Part shown: one piece after another, positions 1 to 16,674 of the stretch
Numbering within the stretch: position 1 is the stretch's first letter
How the letters are laid out: every line of letters starts with the position of its first letter
Assembly (NCBI GenBank): GCA_963843575.1
Contig: CAWJKZ010000004.1
Coordinates: forward strand, 88,465-152,464
Direction: 5' to 3'
Length of the DNA: 64,000 nucleotides
From: an uncultured Acidobacteriota bacterium
GTDB taxonomy: Bacteria; Acidobacteriota; UBA6911
The notes under the pieces: model-generated
The model's input: only the letters and a program-made list of their open reading frames with translations
What the model was told of the DNA's origin: nothing
The model's database searches: none
Translations under genes and position numbers: made by a program

Positions 1-1226
1 GCATCCCCGGAGCCAACGACCGGATCGCGCTTGGGCACATCGGGGTGGGAAGCCGCGGCACTGAGCTGCATATGATGGTGTCGCGCGTGAAGGACAAGCA
101 CAACGTGGAGACCGTCGCCGTCTGCGACCTCTGGAAAAACAACCGGGAGCGTGCGGCGGCAAGCACCGAGCGTTACTACGGACGCGCCCCGCGCGCCTTC
201 CAGCACATGGAGGAACTGCTCGCATTGAAGGAGGTGGACGCCGTCATGATCGCCACCCCCGAGCATTCCCATTCACCCGTCCTGAAAGCGACGGCTGAAG
301 CGGGAAAGGACGCCTACTGCGAGAAACCGATGGGGAACGTGCTCGCCGAAGTCAAAGCGGCCCGCGACGCGGTCAAGGAGCGCAAGCTCGTCGTGCAGGT
401 CGGGACGCAGCACCGCAGCGAGCCCTACCAGCTCGCCGCGCGCGAAGTCGTGCGCAGCGGCGCTCTCGGAGACATAAGCAAGTATGAGATCGTCTGGAAT
501 TACAACGGCCCGCGTTGGCGCGGCCGCCCCGAGGTAAAGCAGATCCGCGAGCAGGATACCGACTGGAGGAAGTGGCTGATGACCAAGCCGCCGCGCCCCT
601 TCGACCCGCAGCTGTATTTCGAGTTCCGCCTCTACCGCGATTTCTCCAGCGGCATCCCCGACCAGTGGATGAGCCACGGCATCGATCTCGTCCACTTCTT
701 CCTGAACGAAGTGCCGCCCCGCTCGGTTGTCGCCCAGGGCGGCGTGTTCGCATGGCACGACGGCCGCGAGAACCCCGACACGTTTCAGGCCCTCGTCGAA
801 TACCCTTCCTTCCTGGCCAGCTTTTCGACCAGTTTCGGCAACGATTGCGACAGCTTCTCGCGGATCATGGGGAAGAAGGCGACGCTCGTCAACATCGGCG
901 GCGAGGGGAGCCCCCGCTGGAAGGTGGTCGAGGAAAAGGGAAATCACGAAAGCAACCCCTACATCCAGCGTACCGAGAAATGGGTCACGCTTCCCGGCGA
1001 CGACAAGCCCGGCCCGATCAACATCGGCGACGAGGACCTGTCCCATCTGACCAACTGGTTCGACTGCCTGCGCAGCCGGAACGCGAAGACCAACGCGACC
1101 GTCGACACCGGCTTCATGCATTCGGTCGCCTGCATCATGGCCACCCAATCCTACTGGCAGGGCAAGCGCCTGTATTACGATCCCAGGACCGAGCAGATAA
1201 AGGACAGTGCACCCGCGACGGCATAA
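1..1226 (+). CDS. Gfo/Idh/MocA family oxidoreductase (5' end outside window)
   Basis: Frame open from the window edge (IPGANDRIALGHIGVGSRG Rossmann start); motifs VAVCD, IATPEHSH, YCEKP, VQVGTQHRS and DQWMSHGID are typical of the family. Confidence 0.9.
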   Translation, partial: IPGANDRIALGHIGVGSRGTELHMMVSRVKDKHNVETVAVCDLWKNNRERAAASTERYYGRAPRAFQHMEELLALKEVDAVMIATPEHSHSPVLKATAEAGKDAYCEKPMGNVLAEVKAARDAVKERKLVVQVGTQHRSEPYQLAAREVVRSGALGDISKYEIVWNYNGPRWRGRPEVKQIREQDTDWRKWLMTKPPRPFDPQLYFEFRLYRDFSSGIPDQWMSHGIDLVHFFLNEVPPRSVVAQGGVFAWHDGRENPDTFQALVEYPSFLASFSTSFGNDCDSFSRIMGKKATLVNIGGEGSPRWKVVEEKGNHESNPYIQRTEKWVTLPGDDKPGPINIGDEDLSHLTNWFDCLRSRNAKTNATVDTGFMHSVACIMATQSYWQGKRLYYDPRTEQIKDSAPATA

Positions 1227-1292: not shown

Positions 1293-4193
1293 TTATTGAT
1301 TGAGTGCGGCAATGTGGTGCGCCAGAATGGCGCGCCACTCGTCGAGCGTGTGGCCGGCCACGGCGCGACGGCGGCGCAGCGGGTCCCCGTAATCCTCCCG
1401 GGAGATATACGGAAGCGCCGCCCCGAGCAGGGATGCCAGATCCGCCTGTGCCGCCGCGACCTCAGGTCCTGTGCGCCCGGTCCGCGTCGCCGTCTCGATC
1501 CGTTCCCTGAGGGTTGCGACGTACAGGTAATCCCCGATTCCCGCGGTCAGCCTCTCGAAGGCGGGCGTTTCGATCGGCCCGTCCGGGCCGGGCAGCGTCA
1601 CGCCTGACCGGTTGTACGGATGAAACCGCTGAAACGGGAGCAGGTCCCAGCCGAAGTGCCACTGCCAGAAGCCGTACGAGCTCGACGCCGCGATCTGGAT
1701 CCCGAAATCGTACCGGTCGGGGATGCCGTTGAAGTACCACAGCCGCGGCTTCCCCCTCTTGCGGGCGGCCTCGATAATCCCCGCCGATTGATCCCAAGGA
1801 TGGGTGGCGACGCAGTCGAAATGATCGAGCAACGGCAGGTAGTCTACGCCGTCCTCCTTGTCCCGCATCGGGTCGATGAAGATCTTCGCGCCCGGCACGC
1901 CTTCGCGCACCAGCCGCGCATAGCGGATCGTGTCCTGCAGGTTCCGGTTCCACTGGTTGATGTTGCGCTCCCGCGGCTCATCCGCAAGGTACAGCAGCAC
2001 TGGCAGGCCGCGCTTCCGAAAGAAATCGTGGATCTTCCCGGCCGCGTCGACATACCTCCTGATGAACAGCGGCGAGAATTCCCCGGTCAAGTCGCCGTCG
2101 GGCAGAGGCGCGGAGATTTCTTCGGGCTCGTGAAAGTCGCCGTAACGTGTTTCCCTCATCAGCCGCCGTGCCACCTCCAGCAGCAGAAGGATGATTCCAG
2201 GCCTCCGGGCATCGCAGAGACCCGCTTCCTTTGCCGCGCGGGCTTCTTCCTCCAGCAGGCTGAAGTCCAGGATCGTGCGTCCACCTTCGACGCCCTTCAC
2301 GATCGGTGCGGTGAACATGTAGGACGTCAGCCCGTGCGCCTTCATCACGCGGGCCTCCGCACGCAGCACGCGGCGGAGATCCTCAATCTTGCCGGGCAGG
2401 AAGTATCGAAGCGAATAGCCGAGGTTATACGGGCTGGACCGGAAGAAACCATACGAGACCGGGTGCTCGGCAGTGAGGGAGAACGGATGAATCGTGATCT
2501 CCACGGGCAGCTCGGCCGACCCCCCCGTGCCGGTTGCGACCTGCAGGCGGCCCCTATACAGGCCCGGAACCGCGTCGGGAGCCGGCGCAAGGGTGATCCA
2601 ATGGGTCACATTCACGCCGCCGGGCGACGGTATCTTTTGCGCCGGGAGCAGGCATCCTTCCCTGAGTTCCGCCGGCCAGTCCGTCCACATGTATTTAAGG
2701 ACTCGCAGCATCAAGGCGCTGCGCGGAAGAACGGCGCCGCCGTCGGTCCTGAATTCCGAGAGGGCCGCCTCCACGGATGCCAGGGGCCCGATCGGCGTAA
2801 CCGTGACCGCGGCATGCCCGAAATCGCCTCGGGCCGCGGCCAACCGGAGCACGCCGGGATCGAGTTCGGCGGCCCGGGGCAGGTCGTACGGGCCGATTTC
2901 CTCGTTGAAGTCCCTGTTCCACAGGAGAAACCCGCGGAGCCGAGCCGTTTCCGACGCTGAAGGCGCAGCGTTCCGAGGTTGCGGCGGGCGCAGGTGGGAG
3001 AGGAAATCGCTCTCCCGGACCTTATCGACCGCGGCCGCAGCGGATTCGAAATCCCTCCCTTCGGGGGCGATGAGGAGACCGAAGACGCAGAGGACACCTC
3101 CCCACGTGAACTCGGCGTGGCCGGCACTCACCTCGAAGGAGAAGTCGTACGACTGCCACGCTTCCGCGACCGACTTGCGGTAGGTATCCTCTCCGGGCGC
3201 ATACCAGTCGTTCATGCCGCGGAAATACTCCGCTTCGGTGTAGTACGCGGCCTGGTCGACCTTTCTCGACGCGACCTGCCGGCCGTCGACTGCCAGCGTA
3301 AAGGAAAGGACGGCCAGGAGCTTGCTGCTGTAGTTTCCGCCATAGAACCGCGCCCTGTACCGCCCAGCCGGCAGGTCAACCCGGAAGCTCGCCTTGCCGC
3401 CGCCGAGGTCGGACCAGATCCAGTCGGAGGTCAGACGCTCCGGCCTCTGGAGAGCCCAAGCCTGCGTCCTTGCCGGTATCGTGGTCCATCCATAGCCGCG
3501 GAAGCCGGCGTAGGCCGCCTTATCGGTCGCAGGCTTTGCGCCCGGTATCAGGGCCGAACCGACAGGGCCGAAGTCGAACAGCACGGTCCCTTTGCCCGCC
3601 CCGACTGCGGATCTTTCATCCCCCGCGAGCACGAAGTTGTAGAGCCAGACGTCGCGTTCGAATTTCTCGGCACTGCGGATCTGCATCAAAACCGAGCGGA
3701 TGCGGACCAGATCGACGGAGCGCCCCGCGCCCGTCCTCAACTCGTCCAGCGGGATCTCAAAGACGTTCCGGGCGCGGGAGAGCCAGATTTCAGGGGATGT
3801 GTAGCTTATCCCAGTTTCGTCCTTGATCGTGAGCACTACCGGGATCATGAATTCCGCCCCGTTGACCACCGTGAACAGGAGCCGTCGAAACCCGGTCCAG
3901 TTCGTCGGCATCCCTGCCTGCGGCGTGAACTCGAGGGAGCTGTAGCCCTCGCCGGGGAGGAGGACAAGGTGGAGCGCACCGGCCGGGACGGCGGGAAGTT
4001 CGACCTCGGGTCGCTCGATCGCGGCCCCATCGGCCGAGGTCCTCGACCATGCGGCCCGGCACCCGGTCACGCCTATCGACCCGACGACCCCCGCATCCTG
4101 AAACGTGCACACAAACCTTCCGGGCGGCCTTTCCGCGCCTGCGGGCATTGCCGACACCAGCATCAAGCTCAACAGCGCGACGACGCGGATCAT
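1293..4193 (-). CDS. Large secreted glycoside hydrolase-like protein (beta-sandwich modules plus GH123-like catalytic region)
   Basis: Signal peptide MIRVVALLSLMLVSAMPAGA at ATG 4193 (ORF track start 4295 probably too long). FDFGP...GYGW and FRVDLPAGRY beta-sandwich motifs, WITLAPAPDAVPGLYRG Ig-like segment, DEP putative catalytic motif, C-terminal ERLTAGIGDYLY. Confidence 0.65.
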   Translation of the reverse strand: MIRVVALLSLMLVSAMPAGAERPPGRFVCTFQDAGVVGSIGVTGCRAAWSRTSADGAAIERPEVELPAVPAGALHLVLLPGEGYSSLEFTPQAGMPTNWTGFRRLLFTVVNGAEFMIPVVLTIKDETGISYTSPEIWLSRARNVFEIPLDELRTGAGRSVDLVRIRSVLMQIRSAEKFERDVWLYNFVLAGDERSAVGAGKGTVLFDFGPVGSALIPGAKPATDKAAYAGFRGYGWTTIPARTQAWALQRPERLTSDWIWSDLGGGKASFRVDLPAGRYRARFYGGNYSSKLLAVLSFTLAVDGRQVASRKVDQAAYYTEAEYFRGMNDWYAPGEDTYRKSVAEAWQSYDFSFEVSAGHAEFTWGGVLCVFGLLIAPEGRDFESAAAAVDKVRESDFLSHLRPPQPRNAAPSASETARLRGFLLWNRDFNEEIGPYDLPRAAELDPGVLRLAAARGDFGHAAVTVTPIGPLASVEAALSEFRTDGGAVLPRSALMLRVLKYMWTDWPAELREGCLLPAQKIPSPGGVNVTHWITLAPAPDAVPGLYRGRLQVATGTGGSAELPVEITIHPFSLTAEHPVSYGFFRSSPYNLGYSLRYFLPGKIEDLRRVLRAEARVMKAHGLTSYMFTAPIVKGVEGGRTILDFSLLEEEARAAKEAGLCDARRPGIILLLLEVARRLMRETRYGDFHEPEEISAPLPDGDLTGEFSPLFIRRYVDAAGKIHDFFRKRGLPVLLYLADEPRERNINQWNRNLQDTIRYARLVREGVPGAKIFIDPMRDKEDGVDYLPLLDHFDCVATHPWDQSAGIIEAARKRGKPRLWYFNGIPDRYDFGIQIAASSSYGFWQWHFGWDLLPFQRFHPYNRSGVTLPGPDGPIETPAFERLTAGIGDYLYVATLRERIETATRTGRTGPEVAAAQADLASLLGAALPYISREDYGDPLRRRRAVAGHTLDEWRAILAHHIAALNQ

Positions 4194-4276
4194 AGGGACT
4201 CCGTCTCTTTTCCGCCCGCTTGAGACTTTCCGGGTCTTTTCCGGCGAATTGCGGGGGCCAGGCAGGATTTCACGGG

Positions 4277-4468
4277 TTACCTGCAGCGGGCCCACAGAAA
4301 CAGGCGCACCCGGTCCTCGGTCAATTGCAGGCCCAGGCCAGGCCGGTCTGTAACTGGGATGAAGCCGTTCCTGAGCTCGAGCTCAGGTGCGTGATCGACG
4401 ATCTGGAAATGCTCCGGCACCCGGTACGGATACAGTTCCTGGATGATGAAGTTCGAGATGCCGGCATG
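4277..4468 (-). pseudogene. C-terminal fragment of a mandelate racemase/muconate lactonizing enzyme (galactonate dehydratase-like)
   Basis: Manual translation of the minus strand: AGISNFIIQELYPYRVPEHFQIVDHAPELELRNGFIPVTDRPGLGLQLTEDRVRLFLWARCR*. NF..QE and P..PGLG.L are enolase-superfamily C-terminal motifs. The 5' part is missing and runs into AT-rich sequence. Confidence 0.7.
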
Positions 4469-4599
4469 TTGTCTCGCTTTCGTCCTCGAAAAGTGGCCTT
4501 AAATCCAATTTTTGCCCCTGTTTTTTCGGTTTAAGGTCGCCGGGAAACGCATTTGAGATCGCGGCTATTTCAATAAAATAGCACCAAAAATCGCAAAAG

Positions 4600-5929
4600 G
4601 CGCCCGCGTTGTTTCCGGACGCCCTGTTCACGGAGTTCCCGATCACGGTGCAACAAAACCAAACGCGGTCGGTATGGGTGACGATCCATGTGCCGACGGG
4701 CCAAGAACCGGGCGAGTACAGGGGCGAACTGAGGCTGCGGCAGGGCACGGAGACGTTGGCGACCGTCCCGTACACCCTGGTGGTTCACAAAGCCACGGTT
4801 TCGAGGCCGATCCCGCTGGCGATCAATAACTACTTGAATCTCGGCGATCGTCACCTCGAGCAGTTTCACAGCTGCACGCGCGGATCAGGGCCGTGGTGGG
4901 ACCTGATCGCGAGTTACGCGCGCTTCTGGGCCGACTACTACCAGACTTCCATCAGCGCAAATGCGGTCTCGCTCACAAAGCCAGCAGCTATCGGGCGGGG
5001 GATTGAGTTACAGCTTCAGCGACTTTGAACGGTACGTCGAAACGTGGGAGGCCGCTGGAGTGAAGGGCCAGATCGACGGCGGGAACCTCATGGAACGGCA
5101 GCGGCGGCGGGACGCCACCATCATGACCGAGGCCTGGCTGGTCGAGGGCGGCAAACCGGTCCGGCGCAGCATCCCGTGGAACGACCCGCGGGCTCAGCAG
5201 TTCCTGAACACCTTCCTGCCCGCGCTCTCCGCGCGGCTCCAGGAACTCGGCTGGACGAACAAGTACATCCAGGGAATCATGGACGAGCCGAACCAGTGGG
5301 AGATCCCGGCGTTCCTCGACACTGCCGCCAAGGTCCGGAAGCTCCTGCCGGGCGTCCGGACAATCGAACCGGTCGGGCTGCGCCAGGACGTCGGCTTCAT
5401 GAAGAAAACGGTGGACATATGGGTGCCTCTGCTCGGCACGTTCGACGAGAAGCTTGACCTCCTTCAACGACACATCAACGAGGACAAGGGCGAGATCTGG
5501 TTTTACACATGCCTGTCGCCGCGGGGGAAATATCCCAACCGCTTCGTCGATACCTCACTGACGAAGGTGCGGCTGCTGCATTGGATCAACTACAAGTGGA
5601 ACTTCACCGGCTTCCTGCACTGGGGCGGTAACTTCTGGGGGCCGGAGCCGCTCAAGGACACACAACCCGTCATCAACGAGGGGCGGACGTACCTGCCTCC
5701 GGGTGACGCGTTCATCACCTACCCTGCCCGCATGGGCCTCTACAGTTCAATCCGGCTGGAGCAGATGCGGGAGGGCATCGAGGACTACGCGCTGCTCAAG
5801 GAACTCGACAGGAAGGACAGAGCACTGGCCCAGAAGATCGCGGGTGAAGCGGTAAGGACGTTCGTCGATTACGTGCGCGGGGCCAAGGAGTTCCGGGCAA
5901 TCCAGCAGAAGCTGCTGGAGGCGCCGTAG
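4600..5929 (+). pseudogene. GH123/DUF4091-like glycoside hydrolase, 5'-truncated and frameshifted near 4995
   Basis: ORFs 4609-5028 (FPDAL, SVWVTIHVP..PGEYRG) and 4961-5929 (MDEP, WFYTC, GFLHWG, SSIRLEQMREGIEDY) join across the G-run at ~4993-5001; no N-terminus. Confidence 0.75.
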
Positions 5930-5970: not shown

Positions 5971-6327
5971 TCATTCCCCCGACTGAGTGTCTCTGATGAA
6001 GTGTGGGATGGATTCGGGTATGGGGAGAGCCAGCTCGATGAAGCCGGAATACCTGCCATCCTTGTACCAGGGCGACTGGTAAATCAGCTTCCTGCTGCCT
6101 GCTTTTTCGATCGAATAGATGTTTGGAACCCCCGATGCCAGCAAGGCCGCCAACTTCGTCCGGGCCGGTTCGGGGTGGCAATCGAGCACGTTGGTGCCGA
6201 TCAGGGCGGATCCGCCATCTTTGGCAAAAGTGTCACATGCCTTCTCGTTCATCCCCAGTAGTATCCCCTCCGGATCACACACCGTGATCGCGGCCGGGAA
6301 TTCGCCAATCCAGGCTGCATCGTTCAT
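5971..6327 (-). CDS. Stand-alone PAS-domain protein
   Basis: MNDAAWIGEFPAAITVCDPEGILLGMN...LIGTNVLDCHPEP...KLIYQSPWYKDGRYSGFIE is a single PAS fold with the DCH motif. Confidence 0.8.
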   Translation of the reverse strand: MNDAAWIGEFPAAITVCDPEGILLGMNEKACDTFAKDGGSALIGTNVLDCHPEPARTKLAALLASGVPNIYSIEKAGSRKLIYQSPWYKDGRYSGFIELALPIPESIPHFIRDTQSGE

Positions 6328-6381
6328 CGATCCCTTTCTCACGCTGCCTTGAGTAGTCAATTACATAAATACGATAGCGTC

Positions 6382-6638
6382 TTTTCGGACGCAGATCCAC
6401 GCGGATCAAAGACAGAGGCGTTGACTGGGGAAGCCCGTGTCCTGCTTTTGTCTTTCGTGGCCGGACCAGACGCCGATAGATCGAAGCTCCCCGCGCTTTC
6501 TTGAGTACTTGGCAGAAGCCAGAACGCGGATTTCCGCGGATTTGAAGGGTTCACGCGGATCGGCCGCGCCGGGCGCGGCCTGTCACCAATGTCTCTGTTG
6601 TTAATTTGCGTGGATCCTCGTCCATCCGCGTCCGAAAA
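6382..6638. repeat. Palindromic intergenic repeat element (ACGCGGAT family)
   Basis: Terminal inverted repeat TTTTCGGACGC (6382-6392) / GCGTCCGAAAA (6628-6638), extending imperfectly inward; internal ~9-nt periodic CGCGGAT units. Confidence 0.75.
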
Positions 6639-6652
6639 ATTCGGGCGGAGTG

Positions 6653-9367
6653 CTATCGCGATGCTTCGCTTCTGACGTGTTGGTTGCGGGGAGTTACCGA
6701 CGTCGAAAGCGCCAGGACCCGTTCCAGGCTGCCGAAGCGCAGAAACAAACGGTCGAACACGTGCAGGTGAAGTCGTGCAAGAAGCCACCCGGCGGAGCTC
6801 ATCCCGATGCCCACGAGCACGGACTGCAGCGTCTTGCGGTACCGGATGGCTTTGACCAGCGGACCCCACCCCGCAGCGCCGGCCGCCGCACACACCAGCA
6901 TCGTCAAGAGCGCTCCCACCGTCAGCGAAAACGCAGTCGCAGCCCGAAGCCGATAGGCATAGAAGAGGCCGATCGTCAGCAGACCCACGATGGCGGCGCC
7001 ACCGACAAGCTGTAGTGACCTCGACAGCGCCCAGATTTTGAAGGCGAGCTTATCTGCAACCTCGAGCTGCCGCTGCAGCGCCGTATCGGCCCGTGGCTGA
7101 ACCATCAGTGGTTCAATCTGCAGAAACTTCCACGGCACACGATCGGCAGGCTGCAACCGGAAGCCGAGGATTGGCTCGCGGAGCGAGTACTCGGTCATCA
7201 GGTACCCGCTCGTCATGAGTGCATACGCCTCCACCTCGGAAAAGGAGTCCAGGTCGGTTCGAATAGCCGCGAGCCGGCGTTGCACATCCCTGTGGATCCC
7301 GTAAGGGCAAACCGGATCGTGGCGTGGCGGGTCGGAACGATCCTGGCACTCGATCCAGTCGACCGCCTCCGCTCCGAGGTCCTGTTTCAGGTGCACGAAC
7401 ATCAGGCCCCTCAATAGCCCGGCGCGACGGCGTGCCTCCAGTTCGCGGAACTGCGTGCTTCTCAGGCGCGCCTGCAAAATGCTGTTGGATCGAAGCGGCA
7501 CGCCCAGCAGGCCCGTACTCGGGGCGTCCTGCGAGTCCATCTGACCGCTGGCGTCACTCAGCAGGAGCACGTTACAGCCCTGTTCGAGAAGGGCCGCGAC
7601 ACCCTGGTTGTCGTGCACGCCGCCATCCACGAGGCGGACGATCAAAGATCGGCCATCACGTTCGTAAAGGCCATTCAGGGACAGGGGTTCAAAGATACCC
7701 GGCACACAGGCTGATGCCGCGACGGCATATCCCAGCCGGATGCCTTGCCGGCCCGGTGGCATCTGATCGTAATACATGCGTCGCAGGCGATAGTTGGAGT
7801 CGATTTTGGCATCCGCCCCCCCGGGCGGCTCGCCCATCCAGGAGGCCGTGAACTGCCAGTTGTGCCCGGTGTTTAGGGAGGTCGCATTCAGCACCAGGAT
7901 GGGCACCTTCGCCGACCGCTTCCAGTTATTGTCCTTGGGCACGAAGTTCTCGTCCCCTTTTGGCCTGATGAACAACCGGTCAAGCCACCTCTTGCCGGTC
8001 TCGCCGTCCTGAACCCGTGAGTAGATCTCGGACTCGTAAAGCTCGCCGGCCCGCAGGGTGCGGGAGTAACCCGGCAGGAAGACCATTTTGACGTTGGTCA
8101 GCCACTCGGCGGCGATCCGAGTACGGACATTCCGCTGTACGCCGGCCAGAAAGTCTTGCGCTACCCGGCCCACCATATCGATGTAGTCCTCCCTCGTGAT
8201 CTCCGGGTCTGTCTTGGTCTGCAGGAGATGGCGGACCTCGAGATAATAGTGAGCGCCAACGATGGATCCTCCCGACACGCACGAAAGGTACTCGACGGTC
8301 CGCAAGAGGTCGAGTTCCGCCAACTTGGCGAGGACTCCTATGTGATAGAGCGAGGCGCGGAACCCGCCGCCACTCAAAGCCAGGCCGACCTTGCCCTGCA
8401 TGACCGATGTGACCGCGGCGTAGTTGCCGCCCAGGAACTCACGCAGCACACGTTCACCTTCAAGACTCGTCTGCTGGTTCCTGGTTTCGCGGGCCTTCCG
8501 CTGCAATCGAAGCAGTGTGGCGATCTGACGTGCGGTGGTTTCCCACTCCCAGTCGCACACCTCGGGGAGCCGGGCGGCCTGCTGGAGCCACAGGCCTGAT
8601 TGCGCGAAGTTCTCCAGCCCGAAATACGCCTCCCCGAGCGTCGCCAGAAACCACCATTCCTGCGCAAGCCAGTCCCTGCCCGGCTGCTCGGGCAGAGGGG
8701 GCAGGACCTTGACGATCTCTTCGCGGATGGCGCGCGACTGCTGGCGGCGCTCCTGGGCCAGAGTACTGGAGGATGCGGCAGCGCGAGCCCCCGATTCGGC
8801 TGAATCGGCGAGGAGGTCGAGCACGAAGGCGGCGTTGATTGCAGTGTACCCGTAATCGCCGACCACACCCTGTCTGTAACCGCGCATGTAGTAGGCCAAT
8901 GACGTCTCGAGATGGTCATCCAGCCCGGTCAGCTCCCACTTGCGCTTGTAGATCGCGCCTGCCTGGCCGAGCGTCTCCTGGTTCGTGGACGTCCCGAGTG
9001 GATCTGCGGCGTTGAGGATGCCCAGTGCGCGGTCAAAGCGGTCGTCCGTGGCTCGCGCAGGGCCGTAGGGAGTGCGGCTCAGACCCGGGTCGGCGGGCAG
9101 GTCGGGATCCTTGTAGGTACAGAGTGCGCGCTGCTGCGCGAACTTGAGACGCTGCTCCCGGTCGGGATGCTGTTGGATTTCGGGGGAATTGGCATGACGG
9201 TCCAGGATCTTACGCGCCAGGCCGAACTTGCGTTCCTTCTTGAGCGCAAAAACAAGTTCGAGCAACGCGCCCGGCTGAATGCTCCTGCCGGCGAGTATGG
9301 ACTCTGCTTCTCGAACCGCCTCGCTCGTGCCGAGTGTGCGGGACTGTTGGATCGGACCTGATGTCAT
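6653..9367 (-). CDS. TPR-S (TRAF-binding-like TPR) - patatin-like phospholipase fusion with C-terminal hydrophobic helices
   Basis: Patatin motifs ALSGGGFRA, SCVSGGS (nucleophile Ser) and DGGVHDNQG. N-terminal TPR region (QETLGQAGAIYKRKWE, GYTAINAA, WWFLATLGEA, WEWETTARQ). Hydrophobic segments near the C-terminus. GGAGG RBS 9 nt before ATG 9367. Confidence 0.85.
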   Translation of the reverse strand: MTSGPIQQSRTLGTSEAVREAESILAGRSIQPGALLELVFALKKERKFGLARKILDRHANSPEIQQHPDREQRLKFAQQRALCTYKDPDLPADPGLSRTPYGPARATDDRFDRALGILNAADPLGTSTNQETLGQAGAIYKRKWELTGLDDHLETSLAYYMRGYRQGVVGDYGYTAINAAFVLDLLADSAESGARAAASSSTLAQERRQQSRAIREEIVKVLPPLPEQPGRDWLAQEWWFLATLGEAYFGLENFAQSGLWLQQAARLPEVCDWEWETTARQIATLLRLQRKARETRNQQTSLEGERVLREFLGGNYAAVTSVMQGKVGLALSGGGFRASLYHIGVLAKLAELDLLRTVEYLSCVSGGSIVGAHYYLEVRHLLQTKTDPEITREDYIDMVGRVAQDFLAGVQRNVRTRIAAEWLTNVKMVFLPGYSRTLRAGELYESEIYSRVQDGETGKRWLDRLFIRPKGDENFVPKDNNWKRSAKVPILVLNATSLNTGHNWQFTASWMGEPPGGADAKIDSNYRLRRMYYDQMPPGRQGIRLGYAVAASACVPGIFEPLSLNGLYERDGRSLIVRLVDGGVHDNQGVAALLEQGCNVLLLSDASGQMDSQDAPSTGLLGVPLRSNSILQARLRSTQFRELEARRRAGLLRGLMFVHLKQDLGAEAVDWIECQDRSDPPRHDPVCPYGIHRDVQRRLAAIRTDLDSFSEVEAYALMTSGYLMTEYSLREPILGFRLQPADRVPWKFLQIEPLMVQPRADTALQRQLEVADKLAFKIWALSRSLQLVGGAAIVGLLTIGLFYAYRLRAATAFSLTVGALLTMLVCAAAGAAGWGPLVKAIRYRKTLQSVLVGIGMSSAGWLLARLHLHVFDRLFLRFGSLERVLALSTSVTPRNQHVRSEASR

Positions 9368-9411
9368 GGCATGCATCCTCCAGCGCCACTCGGTTTGAAG
9401 CAGAACGTTCC

Positions 9412-10737
9412 TCAACGACCCGAGCTGGCGCGCAGGGAGCGCTCCACGTCCAGTGCCCACCCGACTGATTGTCCGCGTCGTTCGCGGGTTTCTGTGATGA
9501 GGTGCAGGTTACGGGCTGTGGTCTCGGGTTCCCAAACTTCCCGCACCGCGGCAAGAGCATTGGCCAGCGCATCGTCGGCGGTTGCCTGGTCGTTCGCCAG
9601 CACCGCCAGTTCCAGCCGCGTCGCGTGGTCCCAGTAATCCGGCTTGCCCGCAGCGATCCGGCGTTCGACCGCGTATGAAACGACGGGGATGATCCGCAGC
9701 CGTCGTTCATCGGGCGGATCGCGCAGTTCCATGAGCGTTACGGCGTTGATGCCGGGATAGGCGTCGCGCCAGTCGGCCTCGAATCCCTTCAGATAGGCGT
9801 CAATCGCCTTGTTCAACAATCCGCGTGCAAGGGCGTTTTCACCGGCCTTGGCTGCTTCCTCCCAACGGTCTTTGTAGACCCGCCCGAGGATGCCATAGGT
9901 TTCGCTGCTCGGTCCACGTTGACCGAGCAGGTCCAACAGCACCCGTTCTGCCTCGTCCCCGCGATTGGCCCGATTCAACGCCAATCCCAGTTGTTCGCGC
10001 ACCATGACCGTCGCCGCCAGCGGAGGAGTCATTTTCGGCACCAGCTCGATCATGTCGGACCACGCCTTCACAGCCCGATAGGACAGGAAGAGATCGATGA
10101 CAACACCGGCCTCGGCATCAGCGAGGTCGGTGATTTCCTCCTCGATCTCATGGAGGGCGTCGCGCCCCCGCTTCCTTGCCCCGGCCAGCTTTGCTCGAAG
10201 CTGCTCCGCATAGGTGACGCGTTCCCGAAAAACATCCGTCTTCAGCCGCTGAATGTCGGGGAATCCATCCAACAGCTGGTAGACGGGGCTGTCGATTGGG
10301 TAGTGCCGTGCCCCTTCCAGCCGTTTGACTATCCTGAATCGGTCGTCGTCGACATTCGCGGGCTTGCCATTCGCTCCCAGCCTGTAGGGAACCGCACGGA
10401 GCGGACCCACATCGAAAGGGAGTTGGCCCGAACCCTCGGCGAAGATCAGGACCGTGCTGGCCGGCCGAACGGCGTGTCGGAGCCCGAGCTCGTAGAACAC
10501 GTTCGCGTTCGCGGTGGTGAGATCCGCCACGGCATATTCGCAGAGGATGAGCCGCTCGAACATCGGCTTGTGGATCATCCCGCCGGCCTGCTCCTCGTCG
10601 GCACGCAGCGGTTCCAGCGAGGCTTCCCGGATCGCGGGAGCGATCAACTCGTTGAAGACGGCGTCGAACTGGATCGGCATCCCGCCACTACCCGGTTTAG
10701 TGCCAAACGGCATTAAAACGAAGCAGAGAGGCTTCAT
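9412..10737 (-). CDS. Deoxyribohydrolase/TIR-like domain + TPR-S (DUF4071/MAP3K TRAF-binding-like) protein
   Basis: MKPLCFVLMPFG...RADEE...ADLTTANANVFYELGLRHA...LPFDV (nucleoside deoxyribosyltransferase-like fold), then LFLSYRAVKAW, EQLGLALNR, SETYGILGRVYKD, YPGINAVTL, DYWDHAT, WEPETTARNL. Confidence 0.85.
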   Translation of the reverse strand: MKPLCFVLMPFGTKPGSGGMPIQFDAVFNELIAPAIREASLEPLRADEEQAGGMIHKPMFERLILCEYAVADLTTANANVFYELGLRHAVRPASTVLIFAEGSGQLPFDVGPLRAVPYRLGANGKPANVDDDRFRIVKRLEGARHYPIDSPVYQLLDGFPDIQRLKTDVFRERVTYAEQLRAKLAGARKRGRDALHEIEEEITDLADAEAGVVIDLFLSYRAVKAWSDMIELVPKMTPPLAATVMVREQLGLALNRANRGDEAERVLLDLLGQRGPSSETYGILGRVYKDRWEEAAKAGENALARGLLNKAIDAYLKGFEADWRDAYPGINAVTLMELRDPPDERRLRIIPVVSYAVERRIAAGKPDYWDHATRLELAVLANDQATADDALANALAAVREVWEPETTARNLHLITETRERRGQSVGWALDVERSLRASSGR

Positions 10738-10970
10738 GGTTTGGTTTCTCCCGCAAACTGAGCTTCGGCCCACCAGAGGTCGGGCCACAGTTCTTCGCAA
10801 GAAAGGAAATAGAGCTGCGTCGACAGGCGGCCTTTCATTGAGGCCCGGTTTCGTTCGTCCGGCCCGTGAGAGCCACCGCCGGTAAGATCAAGTCTGAACG
10901 TACTCTAGGTCCAGATTGGTGGTCACCGTCAAGCGAAATTAGCGTGTGGCGGGCACATTCCTGGGTGGTG

Positions 10971-11043
10971 CTGGTCACCGGCTAACACGGCGGAACGCGG
11001 ATTTCATCGAATCTCACGGATTCACGGATCCGAATCCGCGTCC
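10971..11043. repeat. Copy of the ACGCGGAT intergenic repeat family
   Basis: 10971-11000 matches the reverse complement of 18246-18275 at 25/30 nt; tandem CACGGAT units ending in ATCCGCGTCC. Confidence 0.7.
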
Positions 11044-11251
11044 TTATCATATTTCTGAACTTCCTCGAGCGTCGTTTTGAGCTATGATTCTCGTCATATA
11101 GCCGGGGAGAGTGACCCCGAATCGGGAAGCAGCGAATCCTGTCCCAGACGGTGGTTTACTTGTCCCCCCCTTTCCTCTCCGCTGGCGCCATGTTGCGGAT
11201 GGCCGGTCCAGGCCACCCGGTGTCGAGCTTTGCAGACGCGGGGCCCTCACG

Positions 11252-14200
11252 ATGCTGATCAAGAAGATATTCCTGGCCTCCTCCTCGGAGCTCAAGGAGG
11301 ACCGCACGCAGTTCGAGCTCCTCATCAATCGCAAGAACAAGGAGTGGGTCGGTAAGGGCGTTTTCCTGGAGCTTCTGGTCTGGGAAGACTTCCTCGACGC
11401 CGTCTCGAAAACCCGCCTGCAGGATGAATACAACAAGGCCATCCGGGACTGCGACCTTTTCGTGATGCTGTTCTTTACCAAGGTCGGGAAATACACCGAG
11501 GAGGAGTTCGAGGCTGCGTTTGGCCAGTTCAAGGCCACCAACAGGCCCTTCATCTTCACCTATTTCAAGGACGCGGAGGTCAGCCTTGGCAGTGCGAACA
11601 AAAAGGACATGCTCAGCCTGTTCGCCTTCCAGGAGAAGCTGGACGCCCTGGGACACTTCTACACTCGATACGAGAACATCGACGCGCTGAAGCTTCACTT
11701 CACCCAGCAGCTGGACAAGCTCGCCGCGAGCGGGTTTATCGAGTTCGGGGCTGACAAGGCGGGAGGCAAAGCGCCTGGCGCGCCCTACCAGGCACCTCCC
11801 CCCGCGGCCGACCATGTCGCACGACCCGCGGAACTGGCGGATCTCAAGCGGCATCTCCTCGGCAAGAATGGGGAACTGCTCCCGAGCACGATCGGGTTGC
11901 ACGGCTTCGGCGGGGCCGGCAAGACTACGCTGGCGCGTCTTCTTTGCGCCGATGCCGCGGTTCGGCAGGCATGTCGGGACGGCATTCTGTGGGTGCCGCT
12001 GGGAAAGAACCCTCCGGAGCCGCGTGCGCAGATGGCAGATCTCGTCTCGGCCTTAACCGGTGATTGCAGCGGGTGTACCACGCTTCCGGGTGCGCGGGCA
12101 CGATTGCAGGCCGCACTGTCTAATAAAAACATCCTCCTCGTCCTGGATGACGTCTGGGATGAGGCCCAGGTCCGTGACGTCGTCGAAGCCAGCACCGGCT
12201 GCGCCCGGCTCATCACCACCCGCAACACGTTCACGCTGCCTTTCGAAGCGATCCTGATCGACGTGGGAACGATGCAGGACGAGGAGGCGGGACGCCTGCT
12301 TGCAGCCGGACTGCCGCAAGGTCAGGACGCGCGGCTCTCGGATCTCGCTCGCAAACTCGGATGCTGGCCGGTGCTGCTGCGTCTGGCCAACCGCACCCTG
12401 CGCCAGCGCATTTTGGGCCAGCGGACGTCGCTCCCCAAGGCGCTGGATGCGGTCGAGAGCGACCTGGCGCGCAAGGGCATTCTCGCTTTCGATCCCACAC
12501 GCGACGCGGCCGAGCGGGACCAGGCGGTCGCGGCAACCGTCGAAGCGAGTCTGGAACTTCTGGACCCCGCAGAGCGCCGACGCTATCTCGAGTTGGCACT
12601 CTTTCCGCAGGACATCCCCATCCCGCTGCGACGTGTCGCGGAGCTTTGGGAGCTCTCGGGTGGGATCACTTTTGAACAGGCCGAAGACCTCGTAACCACG
12701 CGACTCGATCCCCTGTCGCTGGTCGAATATAACGGGGAGGCCGGTACGATTCAGCTGCACGACGTTCTGCGTCGGTACGTCTCGGCCAAGCTGCCGGACA
12801 AGGCAACTCTGCACCTGCGTCTGGTCGAGCGGTGGGGCGACCGTCCCGCGCATGACGACCTCTATGGGTGGCGCTGGATCGCATTTCACCGCGCGCAGGC
12901 CGCCCTGGCGAGCGATCAACCTGCGCGCCACGCCCTGACCGAGCGGTTGGTGGGGCTTGTGACGGATGAGCAGTGGCAGAAAGTGCACGAAGACACGCTC
13001 ACGGATCCTCCCGCCCTGAGGGATGCGCTCGCGGTCGCGCTCGAGGCGGCCATCGCAGACGACGTGCCGCTGGGAGTCCCGCTGGTGGTCCGGGTGGCGG
13101 ACGCCCTCGTCGGTTTCCAGCGCGATCATTCCCGCCCGGAACCCGTGTTCGACCTCGCGCGGCGGGGTGATCTTGGCGGTGCCCGTCGCCGCAGCGCGCT
13201 GTTCTCCATCGACGAGCACTGGCGCCAACTGCTGATGCTCGCCGCGGCGTGGCTCGCGCCGCTCGATTGCCGCGACAGCGCGCGCAAGCTGGTGGACGAG
13301 ATCCAGGCCGAGCTCGCACCGCACCAGGCCCTGCGCGACCTGTGCCGCTGGATTCGCGCCGATCTTTGGGGCGAGCCCGCGCCGGCTTTCCCCTTCCTGG
13401 TTCCCCCCGACAAAGCCGACGAGGCGCTGATCGAGGAGTTGCTCAAACGCGTCGGCGGAGGTCAATACAGCCGGGAGCTCATCGTAAGCCGGGGACTCGA
13501 TCCGAACGTCGCGGACCCGGACACGCCTCCGCCGGCGGAGGGGCTCTACCGCCAGCCGGTGCTGGGCGGAACCAGCGCCAACGAGAAGGAAGAGCGGACC
13601 ACCACGCGCTATCTTGCCGAGCTGGACGGTCCCTACCTGGTAGCCTACGCGGCGCGCGATCCGGCGAACGGAAGGGAGGCTCTCGAACGGTACCTCAGTG
13701 TCTACACGAACTACAGCTATCCCGAGTACCGATTCAGTACCCTGTGGCTGCTCCTGGGCTACATTGTCCAGCTGCCGCGGACCGACGGCGGCCAGTGGGT
13801 CCGGGAGTGCGTCCTGCGGATTCTCACCTCGGCCTTGAGTGGCGGAAGCGTCGAATTCGAGAAGGGGTTGCCCATTGCCGCTACCGCCCTGCGCGCCCGC
13901 GCCGGGGACCAGGGCGCGTGGAAAACGCTCACCGAACAGGCTCGTCGGCTGATGGACGAGGCCGCTCGACTGAAGCCGGGACGCGACCGCGGGGGCAGCG
14001 ACATCTGGGCACACCAGAAGCGGCTGATGCTCGCAACCGCTCAGGCGCTCGGGTGGCTGGTGGGCGAAAAAACTCTGGCGGGCCAAGTCCTGCACGACGC
14101 GTTCGGTCTGGCCGATTCGGGTTTTGCCGGGTACCAGGCGCCGGCCTGCCTCGCACTGGCGGAGGCCGTTCTGGTGTGCCGGCGAAACGACCCCGAAGGG

Positions 14201-14887
14201 GCGGGAGAGATCGAGCAGGCACTGGAGTGGGCACAGCGGGCCGCGCACAACGTGCAGGACCCGACCTTTTGCGCGCGAATGACGGCCCGCGTCAACGCGA
14301 TGCGGCGAGGCTGGTCGCAAGGCTTCGACCCGGTCGCGGGGGCGCGGCGCCTGGCAGAAGCCGCCCACGCACCGGAGTTCGCCGCGCTGCACCGCGTCGG
14401 CCATCAATACACCGGTCGCAGGCCGGATGCACTGCCCCTTCCACCGTGGGCATTCGATGACGGGACCTTCGACGGGTTGCAGCGGCTCTATCAGCGTCCG
14501 AAAGCTGATTTCCTGCGTCTCAACATCGGCGCGAACGAGCCGTTCAAGAAGGACAGCAAACTGATCGTGCGTGAGGTGGCGGTGCCCGATCCGGGCTTCG
14601 TGCCGCATCTGGCCGCGAGACTTGCGGCCGAGGTGCTCGCTCAGGCAATCGACGTGCCCCTGTCGGCCGAGCGTCTGCAATTGCTGCGCTTGCTCGTGCC
14701 CTATGCCATACCGAGCCCAACGGCGCTCGATGCCGTGCTGACGCGGCTGGTGCTTGCGCAGGGCCGCCGCGCGGCGCCCGCAGGTCCCGCCGAGGTGGAA
14801 GCACTCGATGCCGTCATCGCGCGGCGCACGGCGACCAAGTCCGACGCGCCGGCAAGCGAGCTTCTTGCCGGGCGCTTGCCCGCCTGA
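11252..14887 (+). CDS. NLR-like STAND ATPase: N-terminal DUF4062/TIR-like domain, NB-ARC, winged helix, uncharacterised helical C-terminus
   Basis: N-terminus KIFLASSSELKEDR...CDLFVMLFFTKVGKYTEEEF; Walker A GFGGAGKT; Walker B LLVLDDVWD; LITTR sensor; GCWPVLL (GxP); LHDVLR (MHD-like). Confidence 0.88.
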   Translation: MLIKKIFLASSSELKEDRTQFELLINRKNKEWVGKGVFLELLVWEDFLDAVSKTRLQDEYNKAIRDCDLFVMLFFTKVGKYTEEEFEAAFGQFKATNRPFIFTYFKDAEVSLGSANKKDMLSLFAFQEKLDALGHFYTRYENIDALKLHFTQQLDKLAASGFIEFGADKAGGKAPGAPYQAPPPAADHVARPAELADLKRHLLGKNGELLPSTIGLHGFGGAGKTTLARLLCADAAVRQACRDGILWVPLGKNPPEPRAQMADLVSALTGDCSGCTTLPGARARLQAALSNKNILLVLDDVWDEAQVRDVVEASTGCARLITTRNTFTLPFEAILIDVGTMQDEEAGRLLAAGLPQGQDARLSDLARKLGCWPVLLRLANRTLRQRILGQRTSLPKALDAVESDLARKGILAFDPTRDAAERDQAVAATVEASLELLDPAERRRYLELALFPQDIPIPLRRVAELWELSGGITFEQAEDLVTTRLDPLSLVEYNGEAGTIQLHDVLRRYVSAKLPDKATLHLRLVERWGDRPAHDDLYGWRWIAFHRAQAALASDQPARHALTERLVGLVTDEQWQKVHEDTLTDPPALRDALAVALEAAIADDVPLGVPLVVRVADALVGFQRDHSRPEPVFDLARRGDLGGARRRSALFSIDEHWRQLLMLAAAWLAPLDCRDSARKLVDEIQAELAPHQALRDLCRWIRADLWGEPAPAFPFLVPPDKADEALIEELLKRVGGGQYSRELIVSRGLDPNVADPDTPPPAEGLYRQPVLGGTSANEKEERTTTRYLAELDGPYLVAYAARDPANGREALERYLSVYTNYSYPEYRFSTLWLLLGYIVQLPRTDGGQWVRECVLRILTSALSGGSVEFEKGLPIAATALRARAGDQGAWKTLTEQARRLMDEAARLKPGRDRGGSDIWAHQKRLMLATAQALGWLVGEKTLAGQVLHDAFGLADSGFAGYQAPACLALAEAVLVCRRNDPEGAGEIEQALEWAQRAAHNVQDPTFCARMTARVNAMRRGWSQGFDPVAGARRLAEAAHAPEFAALHRVGHQYTGRRPDALPLPPWAFDDGTFDGLQRLYQRPKADFLRLNIGANEPFKKDSKLIVREVAVPDPGFVPHLAARLAAEVLAQAIDVPLSAERLQLLRLLVPYAIPSPTALDAVLTRLVLAQGRRAAPAGPAEVEALDAVIARRTATKSDAPASELLAGRLPA

Positions 14888-14930
14888 TGCCTCTGCATTT
14901 GGGGACGCGGATCGTCTTTTCGGCAGAATG

Positions 14931-15009
14931 ACTTCGAGGTTCTTTGAGGTCTTGGAGGTAAGTTCCTTAGCCCACCTCCAAGACTCCAAGACCTCAAAGA
15001 ATCTCCAAG
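14931..15009. repeat. Hairpin built from short periodic units
   Basis: Perfect 18-bp inverted repeat TTCTTTGAGGTCTTGGAG (14940-14957) / CTCCAAGACCTCAAAGAA (14984-15001); units CTTCGAGGT, CTTTGAGGT, CTTGGAGGT. Confidence 0.8.
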
Positions 15010-15117
15010 TGCGTTTGCGGCTCTGCCGCGCCGTGTTGTTCTGCGGTCGTTACCGTTTGCCGCGGGTACTTTTATGTGCAATGAGCATGAAAAACAGCAG
15101 GCCGGGTGTCCCAACCC

Positions 15118-16674
15118 ATGAGTGACATCTTTCTGAGCTATGCTTCCGCGGACCGTGACAGGGTTCGCCCTCTGGTCGCCTGGCTCCAAGGCAGAGGCTG
15201 GTCGGTGTGGTGGGACCGCACTATCGTTCCAGGCCAGACATGGGATGAGGTTCTTGCCGTGGCGCTGGCAGACTCCCGTTGCGTACTCGCGGTCTGGAGC
15301 CGGGCTTCTGTTAATTCCGACTGGGTGCGCATCGAAGCCTCCGACGGCAAGGAGCGGGAAATCCTGGTGCCCATCCTCATCGACGACATCGCCCTCCCGC
15401 TTGCCTTCCGACTTGTCCAGGCAGCCTCGCTGGTCGGCTGGAACGGCGAAGAGAATCACCCTGCCCTGACCCAGGTCGCTCTCGGCATCAGCGCGATCCT
15501 GAACGACACGCGTCCAAAGGAGAGCGCCCTGATTCGACCTGCGCCAGCCGCTCACATCGAACCGCGTGTTCTGGACGCCGCCATCTGCCGCCACCTTCCA
15601 GTCCATGAGCCGGCCGACTTGATCGCCATGGTTCGCCGCGAGGCCTCGGGGGGGCTTCGAGCAATCCTCGAATTCGATGAGGAATATGCCATGTCGCCTT
15701 CCGACGTGGCCTCCAAGCCCTTCGAGCTCGAATTCCCGCTCGATCCGGCGGGCAAGCCGTTGGGCGCAGAGCTCCTGCTCCGCATCAAGGCCCCGGATTT
15801 CGAGCCTCCGTCCCAGGAGAAGAAACTTCGGGTTCCGCCGGGCCGCGACTCCGTCGTGTGCGCCTTCCTTCTGACCCCACAGGTTCAGGGGAACCTGCTC
15901 GTTCAGCTGGAGGTCCTCCAGGGCGAATCGTCTGTAGCCTCGCGCCTGCTTCGCCCAACCGGGATTCCTTCGGACCGTCCCGTCGCCCGGCGCGCCGGGA
16001 TGGTCGTGTCGATGCCATTGCCGGTCTCCGTCCACGATCTGGACCGCACGGCCGTGCCCTACGGACCTCCGCCGGCCGGCAGCCGTCCCATCGAGAGGGA
16101 GAAACCCGTGGGAAGCGCGCCGGAACAGCGCCGTCCCGCTGCGCCGGCACCTCGTCACCCGGAATCAGGGGAATCTGATGATACGGTTTCGTTCCCGAGG
16201 CGTCGTCCCCGCTCACATTCTTACATGAGACTGGGCACCATTGCCGCCGCACTGTTCGTTTGTGTGACGGCCACTTACCTGTTCTATCTGCCGAGGGCAG
16301 CCCCGCCTGGGATGGTGCGGCCGACTCCGCCCGACGCCGCGCCAGTTATTCCGCCCGTGACGACTCCGCCGTCCACGCCGGCGAAGCCAATGCGCGTCGA
16401 AGCAGACGTGCAGGCATCCAAGCTGGTCAGGAGAGTCGCCCCGGCCTATCCCGAGGCGGCGAGGCGGAGTCGCGCGCACGGCGAGGTTGTGCTGTCGATA
16501 CACGTGGACCAGGCGGGAAACGTCTCCGAAGTGAGTGTGCTGAGCGGGCACCCGCTGCTGCGTGATGCCGCAGTCGAGGCAGTGCGTCGATGGAAGTACT
16601 CACCAACTCTGTTGAAGGGAGAGCCGGTTCCTGTTACAACCACAGTAACGGTGACACTCGAACCTCACGACTGA
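15118..16674 (+). CDS. TIR domain - unknown beta-rich domain - TM helix - TonB C-terminal domain fusion
   Basis: TIR motifs DIFLSYAS, VWWDR, VWSRASVNSDWVRIEA; TM LGTIAAALFVCVTATYLFYL; Pro-rich linker; TonB_C PAYPEAARR...GEVVLSIHVDQAGNV...SGHPLLRDAAVEAVRRWKYSP. Confidence 0.85.
   Translation: MSDIFLSYASADRDRVRPLVAWLQGRGWSVWWDRTIVPGQTWDEVLAVALADSRCVLAVWSRASVNSDWVRIEASDGKEREILVPILIDDIALPLAFRLVQAASLVGWNGEENHPALTQVALGISAILNDTRPKESALIRPAPAAHIEPRVLDAAICRHLPVHEPADLIAMVRREASGGLRAILEFDEEYAMSPSDVASKPFELEFPLDPAGKPLGAELLLRIKAPDFEPPSQEKKLRVPPGRDSVVCAFLLTPQVQGNLLVQLEVLQGESSVASRLLRPTGIPSDRPVARRAGMVVSMPLPVSVHDLDRTAVPYGPPPAGSRPIEREKPVGSAPEQRRPAAPAPRHPESGESDDTVSFPRRRPRSHSYMRLGTIAAALFVCVTATYLFYLPRAAPPGMVRPTPPDAAPVIPPVTTPPSTPAKPMRVEADVQASKLVRRVAPAYPEAARRSRAHGEVVLSIHVDQAGNVSEVSVLSGHPLLRDAAVEAVRRWKYSPTLLKGEPVPVTTTVTVTLEPHD

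Follow-up and report, generated by a model that had tools for sequence, protein, structure and literature searches.

Burroughs and Aravind (J Bacteriol, 2020) reportedly predicted a bacterial TPR scaffold, TPR-S, that senses signals derived from nicotinamide adenine dinucleotide (NAD+) and was taken into the animal ASK signalosome; TPR-S is said in the same work to be combined with TIR, DRHyd, SLOG and effector domains. Here we describe two adjacent TPR-S genes of an uncultured Acidobacteriota bacterium (UBA6911), found in a stretch of 64,000 nucleotides (nt) that we call the window (GCA_963843575.1, contig CAWJKZ010000004.1, positions 88,465-152,464). Gene 1 encodes a DRHyd-TPR-S protein and gene 2 a TPR-S-patatin membrane protein. 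With two divergent genes, for a STAND NTPase and a membrane TIR protein, they occupy window positions ~6653-16674, and we put slightly better than even chances on genes 1 and 2 being the output half of a four-gene, NAD-signalling module of abortive-infection type. They are best seen as two TPR-S-gated effectors in a modular TIR/STAND-linked system, not as a closed sensor-effector pair. Judged by its domains, the locus appears to be a lipase variant of the predicted TPR-S class. The two genes, in window coordinates, are laid out as follows.

Gene 1: 9412..10737, minus strand (10737..9412), 441 amino acids (aa), ATG start with GGGAGA upstream
Gene 1 domains: DRHyd ~1-155, a long helix, TPR-S ~206-425, minus strand (from Pfam, homology and the structural model)
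Spacer: 9368..9411, minus strand, 44 nt, containing the GGAGG ahead of the gene 2 start
Gene 2: 6653..9367, minus strand (9367..6653), 904 aa, GGAGG 10 nt before the ATG start
Gene 2 domains: TPR-S ~16-295, patatin 327-605, conserved post-patatin region 606-770, C-terminal transmembrane (TM) anchor, minus strand

The arrangement agrees with an earlier note on this DNA, which had reported two co-oriented genes ~45 nt apart. A promoter and terminator scan, compared with shuffles, found no terminator-like site in the spacer, which suggests a single transcript; genes 1 and 2 are probably one operon.

A described counterpart of gene 1 is BcTpr of Bacillus cereus, which an unreviewed preprint presents as a glycosidase and TPR protein that depletes NAD+ and makes an isomer of cyclic ADP-ribose (cADPR) (10.1101/2023.05.26.542521). 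According to the same source, cADPR binds BcTpr at 1.9 uM and then permits NAD+ binding, the substitutions N82A and E86A abolish defence against T2, BcTir/BcTpr protects E. coli from T2, and the highlights state that the two proteins act as a complex. BcTpr (415 aa) is built like gene 1 (441 aa), with an N-terminal MilB-like glycosidase and a C-terminal TPR region of ~12 helices. Its N80, N82 and E86 are spaced as N77, N79 and E83 of gene 1, a match of motif spacing rather than of a direct alignment, and the N-x-N-x3-E spacing of protein P0001 is identical to BcTpr's. Both loci have a TIR gene as partner. The B. cereus system has no lipase or second TPR-S protein, whereas the window adds the TPR-S-patatin-TM, STAND and membrane TIR proteins. 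Three marks of a TPR-S (Tpr-core) system are present, namely a DRHyd/glycosidase N-domain fused to TPR-S, the catalytic Asn and Glu, and a linked TIR gene. The preprint counts 78 operons of the 2020 data set, with Tpr alone in 29, Tir-Tpr in 28, YpsA-Tpr in five and Patatin-Tpr in four (10.1101/2023.05.26.542521). Since Patatin-Tpr assemblies (4/78) have already been counted and the 2020 prediction exists, the class itself is not unknown. Our literature search, which covered main texts, found none combining TPR-S with patatin, TPR-S with TIR plus effector in this sense, or TRAFs-binding with phage; it found no experimental work on the patatin pair, in line with the earlier note.

Three other defence systems invite comparison. 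The cyclic oligonucleotide-based antiphage signalling system (CBASS) with CapV shares with the proposed action of gene 2 the gating of a patatin lipase by a second messenger and cell death through membrane damage; gene 2 differs in its TPR-S sensor, its TM anchor and its C-V-S-G-G elbow. CBASS was rejected as an assignment: the Pfam scan for neighbourhood domains, covering open reading frames (ORFs) from window 45 to 31670, returned no CD-NTase, and PADLOC matched no model to gene 2, CapV models included. Thoeris resembles the proposed logic in that a TIR-made, NAD-derived signal activates a separate effector, and the window holds weak ThsB matches (E 0.0015 and 0.0061, both to the membrane TIR protein); it is unlike the present locus, where the predicted receptor is TPR-S and there are two effectors and a STAND NTPase. 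It too was rejected, with no ThsA (SIR2-SLOG or TM-Macro) in the cluster and only weak ThsB-like matches. Finally, the TIR-ParA/TIR-STAND apoptosis systems combine an upstream TIR gene with a ParA-TIR-STAND protein; in some of the versions described, ParA is absent and TIR is joined straight to STAND, the state also seen in the window (bioRxiv 10.64898/2026.10.19.760177). Neither patatin nor TPR-S occurs in the main text of that paper, which therefore makes no mention of a TPR-S-patatin-TM tail on these proteins.

Two proteins with a homologous TPR-S domain

Pfam matches gene 1 to MAP3K_TRAF_bd (PF13281, E 1.8e-49, residues 80-423) and to TPR-S (PF20308, 2.7e-27, residues 226-336). Its N-domain is predicted to be a nucleoside deoxyribosyltransferase-like DRHyd with NADase activity. 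A profile built from the first 160 residues of 22 relatives matches the Rcl/DNPH1 deoxynucleotide N-hydrolases (E 0.0015-0.016), whose YELG falls on the FYELG of the gene 1 family; PADLOC gives a weak TIR effector match (9.4e-6, residues 49-117) and the NCBIfam search no match. The N-x-N-x3-E motif is intact (N77, N79, E83), which bears out the DRHyd/TIR-like domain claimed in the earlier note. N77 and E83 are invariant among aligned relatives, close and distant (26/26 in alignment A3, 22/22 in A5). Among 50 representatives of the wider family (alignment A4), the Glu and N77 are each kept in 35 and N79 in 36, and the TPR-S residues E279, G285, K289, Y315, G329, N331, W369, E376 and T407 are kept in 48-50. 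The family is large: 13,903 cluster representatives (50% identity) match at E <= 0.001, and 694 at 1e-30.

As the earlier note had proposed, gene 1 resembles the regulatory region of animal ASK1/MAP3K5. Its homology to human ASK1 extends over the TPR region as well as the DRHyd-like thioredoxin-binding domain (phmmer, 8qgy at 7.6e-7 and 5ulm at 4e-6), and the alignment has LSYR, GR(I/V)YKD and GIN motifs in common. With the AlphaFold2 model of gene 1 (predicted local distance difference test, pLDDT, 89.9), the best Foldseek matches are again ASK1 (8qgy, 7.2e-10; 5ulm, root-mean-square deviation 3.3 A over 256 columns). Unlike the bacterial family, with the catalytic Glu of FYELG, ASK1 reads FYHLG, with His. 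A kinase of the ASK1/MAP3K5 type was rejected, gene 1 ending at residue 441 after TPR-S with no PH or kinase match; its homology stops at the regulatory region.

Gene 2 carries TPR-S (PF20308, 8.7e-15, residues 68-182) and Patatin (PF01734, 8.3e-14, residues 329-592), so that all three families singled out for profile searches in the earlier note, MAP3K_TRAF_bd among them, were matched in Pfam. The protein has the Gly-rich oxyanion loop, Ser elbow and D-G-[AG] Asp of a patatin-like phospholipase: GGGFR (333-337), the CVSGG nucleophile elbow (S365) and DGG (581-583, D581) are invariant in 21/21 aligned homologues, which come from several phyla at 55-70% overall identity. In the elbow, an invariant Cys replaces the first Gly of the G-x-S-x-G type. 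Mean identity to gene 2 stands at 55% for TPR-S, 75% for the patatin core and 46% for the TM region. In a hydropathy scan, residues 783-805 and 810-838 stand out as strong TM segments, with another hydrophobic helix beyond 847 (possible TM 847-870), so the intact patatin and C-terminal TM helices of the earlier note both stand. As the N-terminus has no signal-like segment, both sensor and lipase are expected on the cytoplasmic side. This N-terminus, the C-terminal TM anchor and the cytoplasmic-type sensor domain led us to reject a secreted ExoU-like toxin. NCBIfam yielded only a sub-threshold RssA match. In the AlphaFold2 model (pLDDT 73.9; predicted template modelling score, pTM, 0.79), TPR-S and the bulk of the lipase are predicted with confidence; because the model is multi-domain, a Foldseek search with all of it was uninformative, returning generic TPR proteins, with the cPLA2 5izr at rank 43.

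The portion of gene 2 from residue 326 to 882 (patatin, post-patatin region and TM) also recurs without TPR-S, as a 580-aa protein of 37-40% identity, on the B. cereus plasmid pRML01 (L168) and six further plasmid records; the lipase-anchor unit is thus a separate module.

The motifs quoted in the earlier note for both TPR blocks are all found in the translations, and its claim of homology holds. For the shared TPR block, BLASTP gives E 0.005 at 28% identity over 189 aa, and hhalign of the two TPR-S families gives 98.8% probability and E 1.4e-16 over 204 columns, pairing gene 1 211-421 with gene 2 33-292. Polar TPR-S residues are common to the two families; the residues they have in common include E279/E131, K289/K141, N331/N178, W369/W239 and T407/T278 (gene 1/gene 2). 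TPR-S shows no less conservation than the enzyme domain, with 32/220 columns at 90% or above against 11/155, a pattern that fits an invariant ligand better than a fast-evolving phage protein. A complex prediction of gene 1 with gene 2 residues 1-320 (score 0.01, mark 0.32) was used neither for nor against any reading.

The earlier note had cast gene 1 as the sensor of the pair. Because gene 1 has a TPR-S domain of its own and NADase activity is reported for its B. cereus relative BcTpr, gene 1 is more likely a signal-gated NADase, as co-effector or amplifier, than a sensor.

Partners, fusions and distribution

Company was assessed from both sides. For gene 2, one genome per species was scanned and at least 525 relatives were confirmed; the best 80 loci, all in other genomes, were studied with up to 6 kb of flank, and 79 were parsed for ORF counts (L046 was dropped, its lipase ORF being unresolved). 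For gene 1, we used 80 metagenome loci with orthologues at 64-77% identity, many on short contigs. A close gene 1 orthologue (at least 58% identity) lies within 6 kb in 16/80 TPR-S-patatin loci and a distant DRHyd-bearing gene in six more (22/80 in total); conversely, 10/80 gene 1 orthologue loci hold a TPR-S-patatin gene. TIR ORFs, detected with a hidden Markov model (HMM) built here, occur in 20/79 TPR-S-patatin loci, against an expectation of ~2.9 calculated from five such genomes, which have 70 TIR_2 matches in 28 Mb (binomial p 7e-12, an approximate figure because the two detection methods differ). They occur in 33/80 gene 1 orthologue loci, and a TIR or DRHyd gene is present in 34/80 TPR-S-patatin loci. 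Among 50 same-strand ORFs directly upstream of the lipase gene, eight are MAP3K_TRAF_bd/TPR-S and six TIR_2, the rest being scattered. The pairing of genes 1 and 2 is therefore recurrent but optional, and TIR and STAND genes are their more constant company. This neighbourhood survey supports the earlier note in finding the pair repeatedly, and goes against its picture of a closed two-gene system.

Such optional pairing is what one would expect if the two genes were merely neighbours in a defence island, the NADase of gene 1 and the lipase of gene 2 being self-sufficient and separately triggered, each by its own ligand or by any TIR signal, and clustering and moving together as modules. No DRHyd gene lies within 6 kb in 58/80 patatin loci, and 46/80 have neither a TIR nor a DRHyd gene there, so the lipase can evidently work with distant partners of this kind or with none. 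Likewise, 70/80 gene 1 orthologue loci lack a patatin gene, though many of these contigs are short, and 29/78 Tpr cores stand alone in the counts of the B. cereus preprint (10.1101/2023.05.26.542521). Order and orientation vary among loci with both genes. We also built a FastTree tree of 89 gene 1 orthologues. Of these, 25 were labelled as having patatin and 15, each with 3 kb or more of sequence to either side, as lacking it; the remaining 49 had flanks too short to label. Patatin adjacency is unclustered on the tree, at 11 changes against 12.2 +/- 1.5 when shuffled (84/300 shuffles reach 11 or fewer); this gives no sign of a dedicated co-evolving pair and suggests free exchange of partners. 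On the other side, the window layout, with gene 1 directly upstream on the same strand, is the commonest by manual count, at 14/26 loci with both genes: seven genome loci (L015, L035, L036, L039, L062, L068, L071) and seven metagenome loci (L090, L111, L114, L122, L125, L132, L163). The terminator-free 44-nt spacer suggests one transcript, and the presence of one rare sensor domain in both proteins is hard to explain without a common input. With no DRHyd or TIR gene near the majority of lipase loci, independent action must be taken seriously as a rival; we consider it unlikely, at appreciable odds.

Several loci with both genes, or with relatives of gene 1, have features of their own. In a Nitrospira genome (L053), a TIR-nSTAND1-FGE-sulfatase gene lies between the counterparts of genes 1 and 2. 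A Blastocatellia copy (L039) may be decaying, its gene 1 orthologue being broken into two ORFs (4050-5689) and its lipase ORF (6250-8451) shorter, at 733 aa. Distant gene 1 relatives (28-31% identity) stand upstream of the TPR-S-patatin gene at L013:3869-5833 and L040:1913-3925 (directly) and at L018:3087-5051 (with one ORF between); all three have an extra C-terminal domain of ~200 residues with conserved GGxxGGD and DGPGGT and no Pfam match, which may be SLOG-like. Around gene 1 orthologues, five metagenome loci (L092, L093, L095, L100, L146) share a recurrent block in the order TIR (~475-500 aa, not in L095), ORFs of ~235 and ~212 aa, a short TIR and DRHyd-TPR-S, followed in 4/5 by another short TIR.

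Natural fusions join these partners in single chains. Two continuous ORFs, of 1984 aa (L060) and 2157 aa (L038), combine CbiA/ParA, TIR_2, NB-ARC, TPR-S and Patatin; other loci fuse TIR (L035) or nSTAND1 (L043) to TPR-S and Patatin. Database proteins have similar fusions (P0009, TIR_2 + TPR-S + Patatin; P0075, AAA_35 + TPR-S + Patatin), and gene 1 relatives are fused to TIR (P0302), DUF4231/SLATT (P0317) or ParA (P0311). The ParA, TIR_2 and NB-ARC part of L060 and L038, and the ParA-nSTAND1-TPR genes of L071 and L034, fit the TIR-ParA-STAND description (10.64898/2026.10.19.760177). The STAND and TIR-TonB_C proteins of the window are themselves homologous to modules fused to TPR-S-patatin elsewhere.

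The fusions bear on a second alternative, a direct protein relay in which one TPR-S domain binds the other, or a TIR/STAND partner, and contact or co-oligomerisation, not a diffusible messenger, carries the activation. In ASK1, whose structure is the closest one solved for this region, the TPR part makes protein contacts. In the fusions, TPR-S occupies the usual position of the STAND repeat domain, and BcTir and BcTpr are stated to act as a complex in the highlights of the preprint (10.1101/2023.05.26.542521). Against such a relay, partners are freely swapped (patatin, SLATT/DUF4231, TIR or none) with no partner-specific clades on the gene 1 tree, which fits a common currency better than matched interfaces, and the polar residues conserved across both families would seem to form a pocket rather than a surface. 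We regard a contact relay as quite improbable.

Genes 1 and 2 are accessory, as defence genes usually are. Homologues of gene 2 occur in 2/40 related genomes, and none was found in a same-genus genome (81% complete); both genes have their nearest relatives (70-77% identity) in other phyla, and gene 1 homologues occur on 67 plasmid records, 33 of them conjugative. By its RefSeq annotation, an Aliarcobacter plasmid packs TIR, patatin, TIR, TIR and TRAFs-binding genes, all co-directional, into no more than 13 kb. On a Rhizobium plasmid (L169), a TRAFs-binding gene is followed by DUF4231 and TIR genes. The opposite strand of this plasmid, divergent from the TRAFs-binding gene, has two TIR genes, an HhH-GPD N-glycosylase, a QueC-like synthase and a carbohydrate kinase, comparable to the recurrent metagenome block above.

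This distribution, and a company of TIR, STAND, SLATT and ParA that is typical of conflict systems, speak against a role outside immunity, for instance a stress or physiological circuit that couples membrane lipid remodelling to NAD or nucleotide status, analogous to ASK1. Such a circuit would suit the ordinary flanking genes of the locus (GH123, GGT, an HtrA-like protease and esterases, by Pfam), its undeviating GC content and the lack of phage or integrase genes, none of which was seen within ~10 kb; we think it very unlikely all the same.

Divergent neighbours and the window

Across from genes 1 and 2 lie the following features.

Intergenic region: 10738..11251, no strand, divergent region between the TPR-S operon and the STAND operon (sequence read)
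STAND NTPase gene: 11252..14887, plus strand, weak TIR-like N-domain, NB-ARC, long helical C-terminal region
TIR-TM-TonB_C gene: 15106..16674, plus strand, TIR, TM ~374-396, proline-rich linker, periplasmic TonB_C

The STAND ORF opens at GTG 11111, 47 codons ahead of its first ATG (11252), the likely start. Its protein has a STAND layout, with NB-ARC at residues 198-326 (Pfam, 6.4e-14) and no Pfam match in the C-terminal ~900 residues; its N-domain matches the PADLOC candidate PDC-S60 (6.9e-10). The NB-ARC module shares 40% identity with a TIR-STAND-WD40 gene beside a gene 1 orthologue (L142), and 32-33% with its counterpart in the TPR-S-patatin fusions of L060 and L038. The TIR-TonB_C protein matches TIR_2 (2.9e-21) and TonB_C (9.3e-19) in Pfam, with its TM segment from a hydropathy scan, and resembles a receptor whose TIR lies in the cytoplasm and whose TonB C-terminal domain lies in the periplasm. 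Its residues 8-305 share ~30% identity with the TIR module of the L035 fusion and with the TIR genes that immediately precede the patatin gene in L057 and L064.

The promoter and terminator scan of the locus gave nothing beyond what shuffles yield; a single sigma-70-like site on the plus strand (11021-11050) is a count not above shuffles. In its own genome (6.68 Mb in 27 contigs), PF20308 has three matches, of which only genes 1 and 2 are above the cut-off and the third reaches 22.6 bits, and TIR_2 has three, of which two are in the neighbours at 11252-16674. A stretch of ~10 kb thus carries both TPR-S genes and 2/3 of the TIR_2 matches. The third TIR_2 match (87 bits) lies in a 429-aa ORF on another contig (G000:C23:8485-8805, minus strand).

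Beyond the cluster, the GH123 glycoside hydrolase gene (4609-5929, plus strand) is split into two overlapping ORFs, 4609-5028 with the tail of the N-domain and 4961-5929 with the catalytic domain; the split may be a frameshift or an assembly error. A 1000-aa ORF at 1293-4295 (minus strand) has no Pfam or PADLOC match, nor have the plus-strand ORFs of 446 and 414 aa that overlap it.

A possible signalling scheme

We tentatively propose, at somewhat less than even odds, that TPR-S is a second-messenger receptor, that the TIR-STAND sensor and the membrane TIR receptor make its NAD-derived signal, that NAD+ depletion and membrane lysis are the two arms, and that the TIR-STAND-TPR-S-patatin fusions are the same pathway in one chain. 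Under the four-gene reading favoured at the outset, the TIR-like NB-ARC STAND protein, the membrane TIR-TonB_C protein or both would detect infection or an envelope cue, and the TIR domain of the detecting protein would convert NAD+ to an ADP-ribose-derived signal. Binding of this signal by the homologous TPR-S domains of both proteins would release the DRHyd glycosidase of gene 1 (N77, N79, E83), destroying NAD+ and perhaps making more signal. It would likewise release the Ser365-Asp581 patatin lipase of gene 2, held at the inner face of the membrane by the C-terminal TM hairpin, and phospholipid degradation might then kill the cell before phage release. We infer the signal, its binding by TPR-S, the order of events and the anti-phage role; a small-molecule relay is favoured because of the family context, the TPR-S conservation pattern, the free exchange of partners and the BcTpr data. 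The candidate abortive-infection system of the earlier note survives in part: the module is plausible and its distribution accessory, but it is not a self-contained or obligate pair.

Several points besides the loci without TIR or DRHyd genes, the scattered adjacency on the tree and the protein contacts of ASK1 weigh against this scheme. We know of no TPR-S domain for which a ligand has been shown structurally. The N-domain of the STAND protein matches TIR_2 at 3.7e-4 and 21.4 bits, against a Pfam cut-off of 28, and was missed by the TIR HMM built in this analysis. The catalytic Glu is lost in 15/50 DRHyd-TPR-S representatives (~30%) with the TPR-S residues still conserved, and non-catalytic sensors, the role supposed for ASK1, may be numerous in the family. 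PADLOC, one of the checks suggested in the earlier note, gave no named system for gene 1 or gene 2. The sole experimental precedent, BcTir/BcTpr, comes from an unreviewed preprint and has a TIR partner and no lipase; BcTir is there reported not to be the signal maker itself, which fits poorly with a TIR-signal step (10.1101/2023.05.26.542521).

Should the lipase act independently instead, the locus would be one more defence islet. If the proposed scheme is true, TPR-S would be a new receptor class for NAD-derived immune signals, and a widespread one, given the 13,903 gene 1 representatives and the species genomes, at least 525, with gene 2 relatives. The patatin arm is of practical interest, membrane lysis being a simple read-out for ligand finding. 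The natural fusions show how bacteria wire NLR-like sensors, TIR enzymes and lipase effectors, and the scheme, if correct, would be a bacterial parallel to plant TIR-NLR signalling through the lipase-like receptors of the EDS1 family. TPR-S is moreover the ancestor of the human ASK1 regulatory region, which would then descend from a nucleotide-ligand sensor and may still be one.

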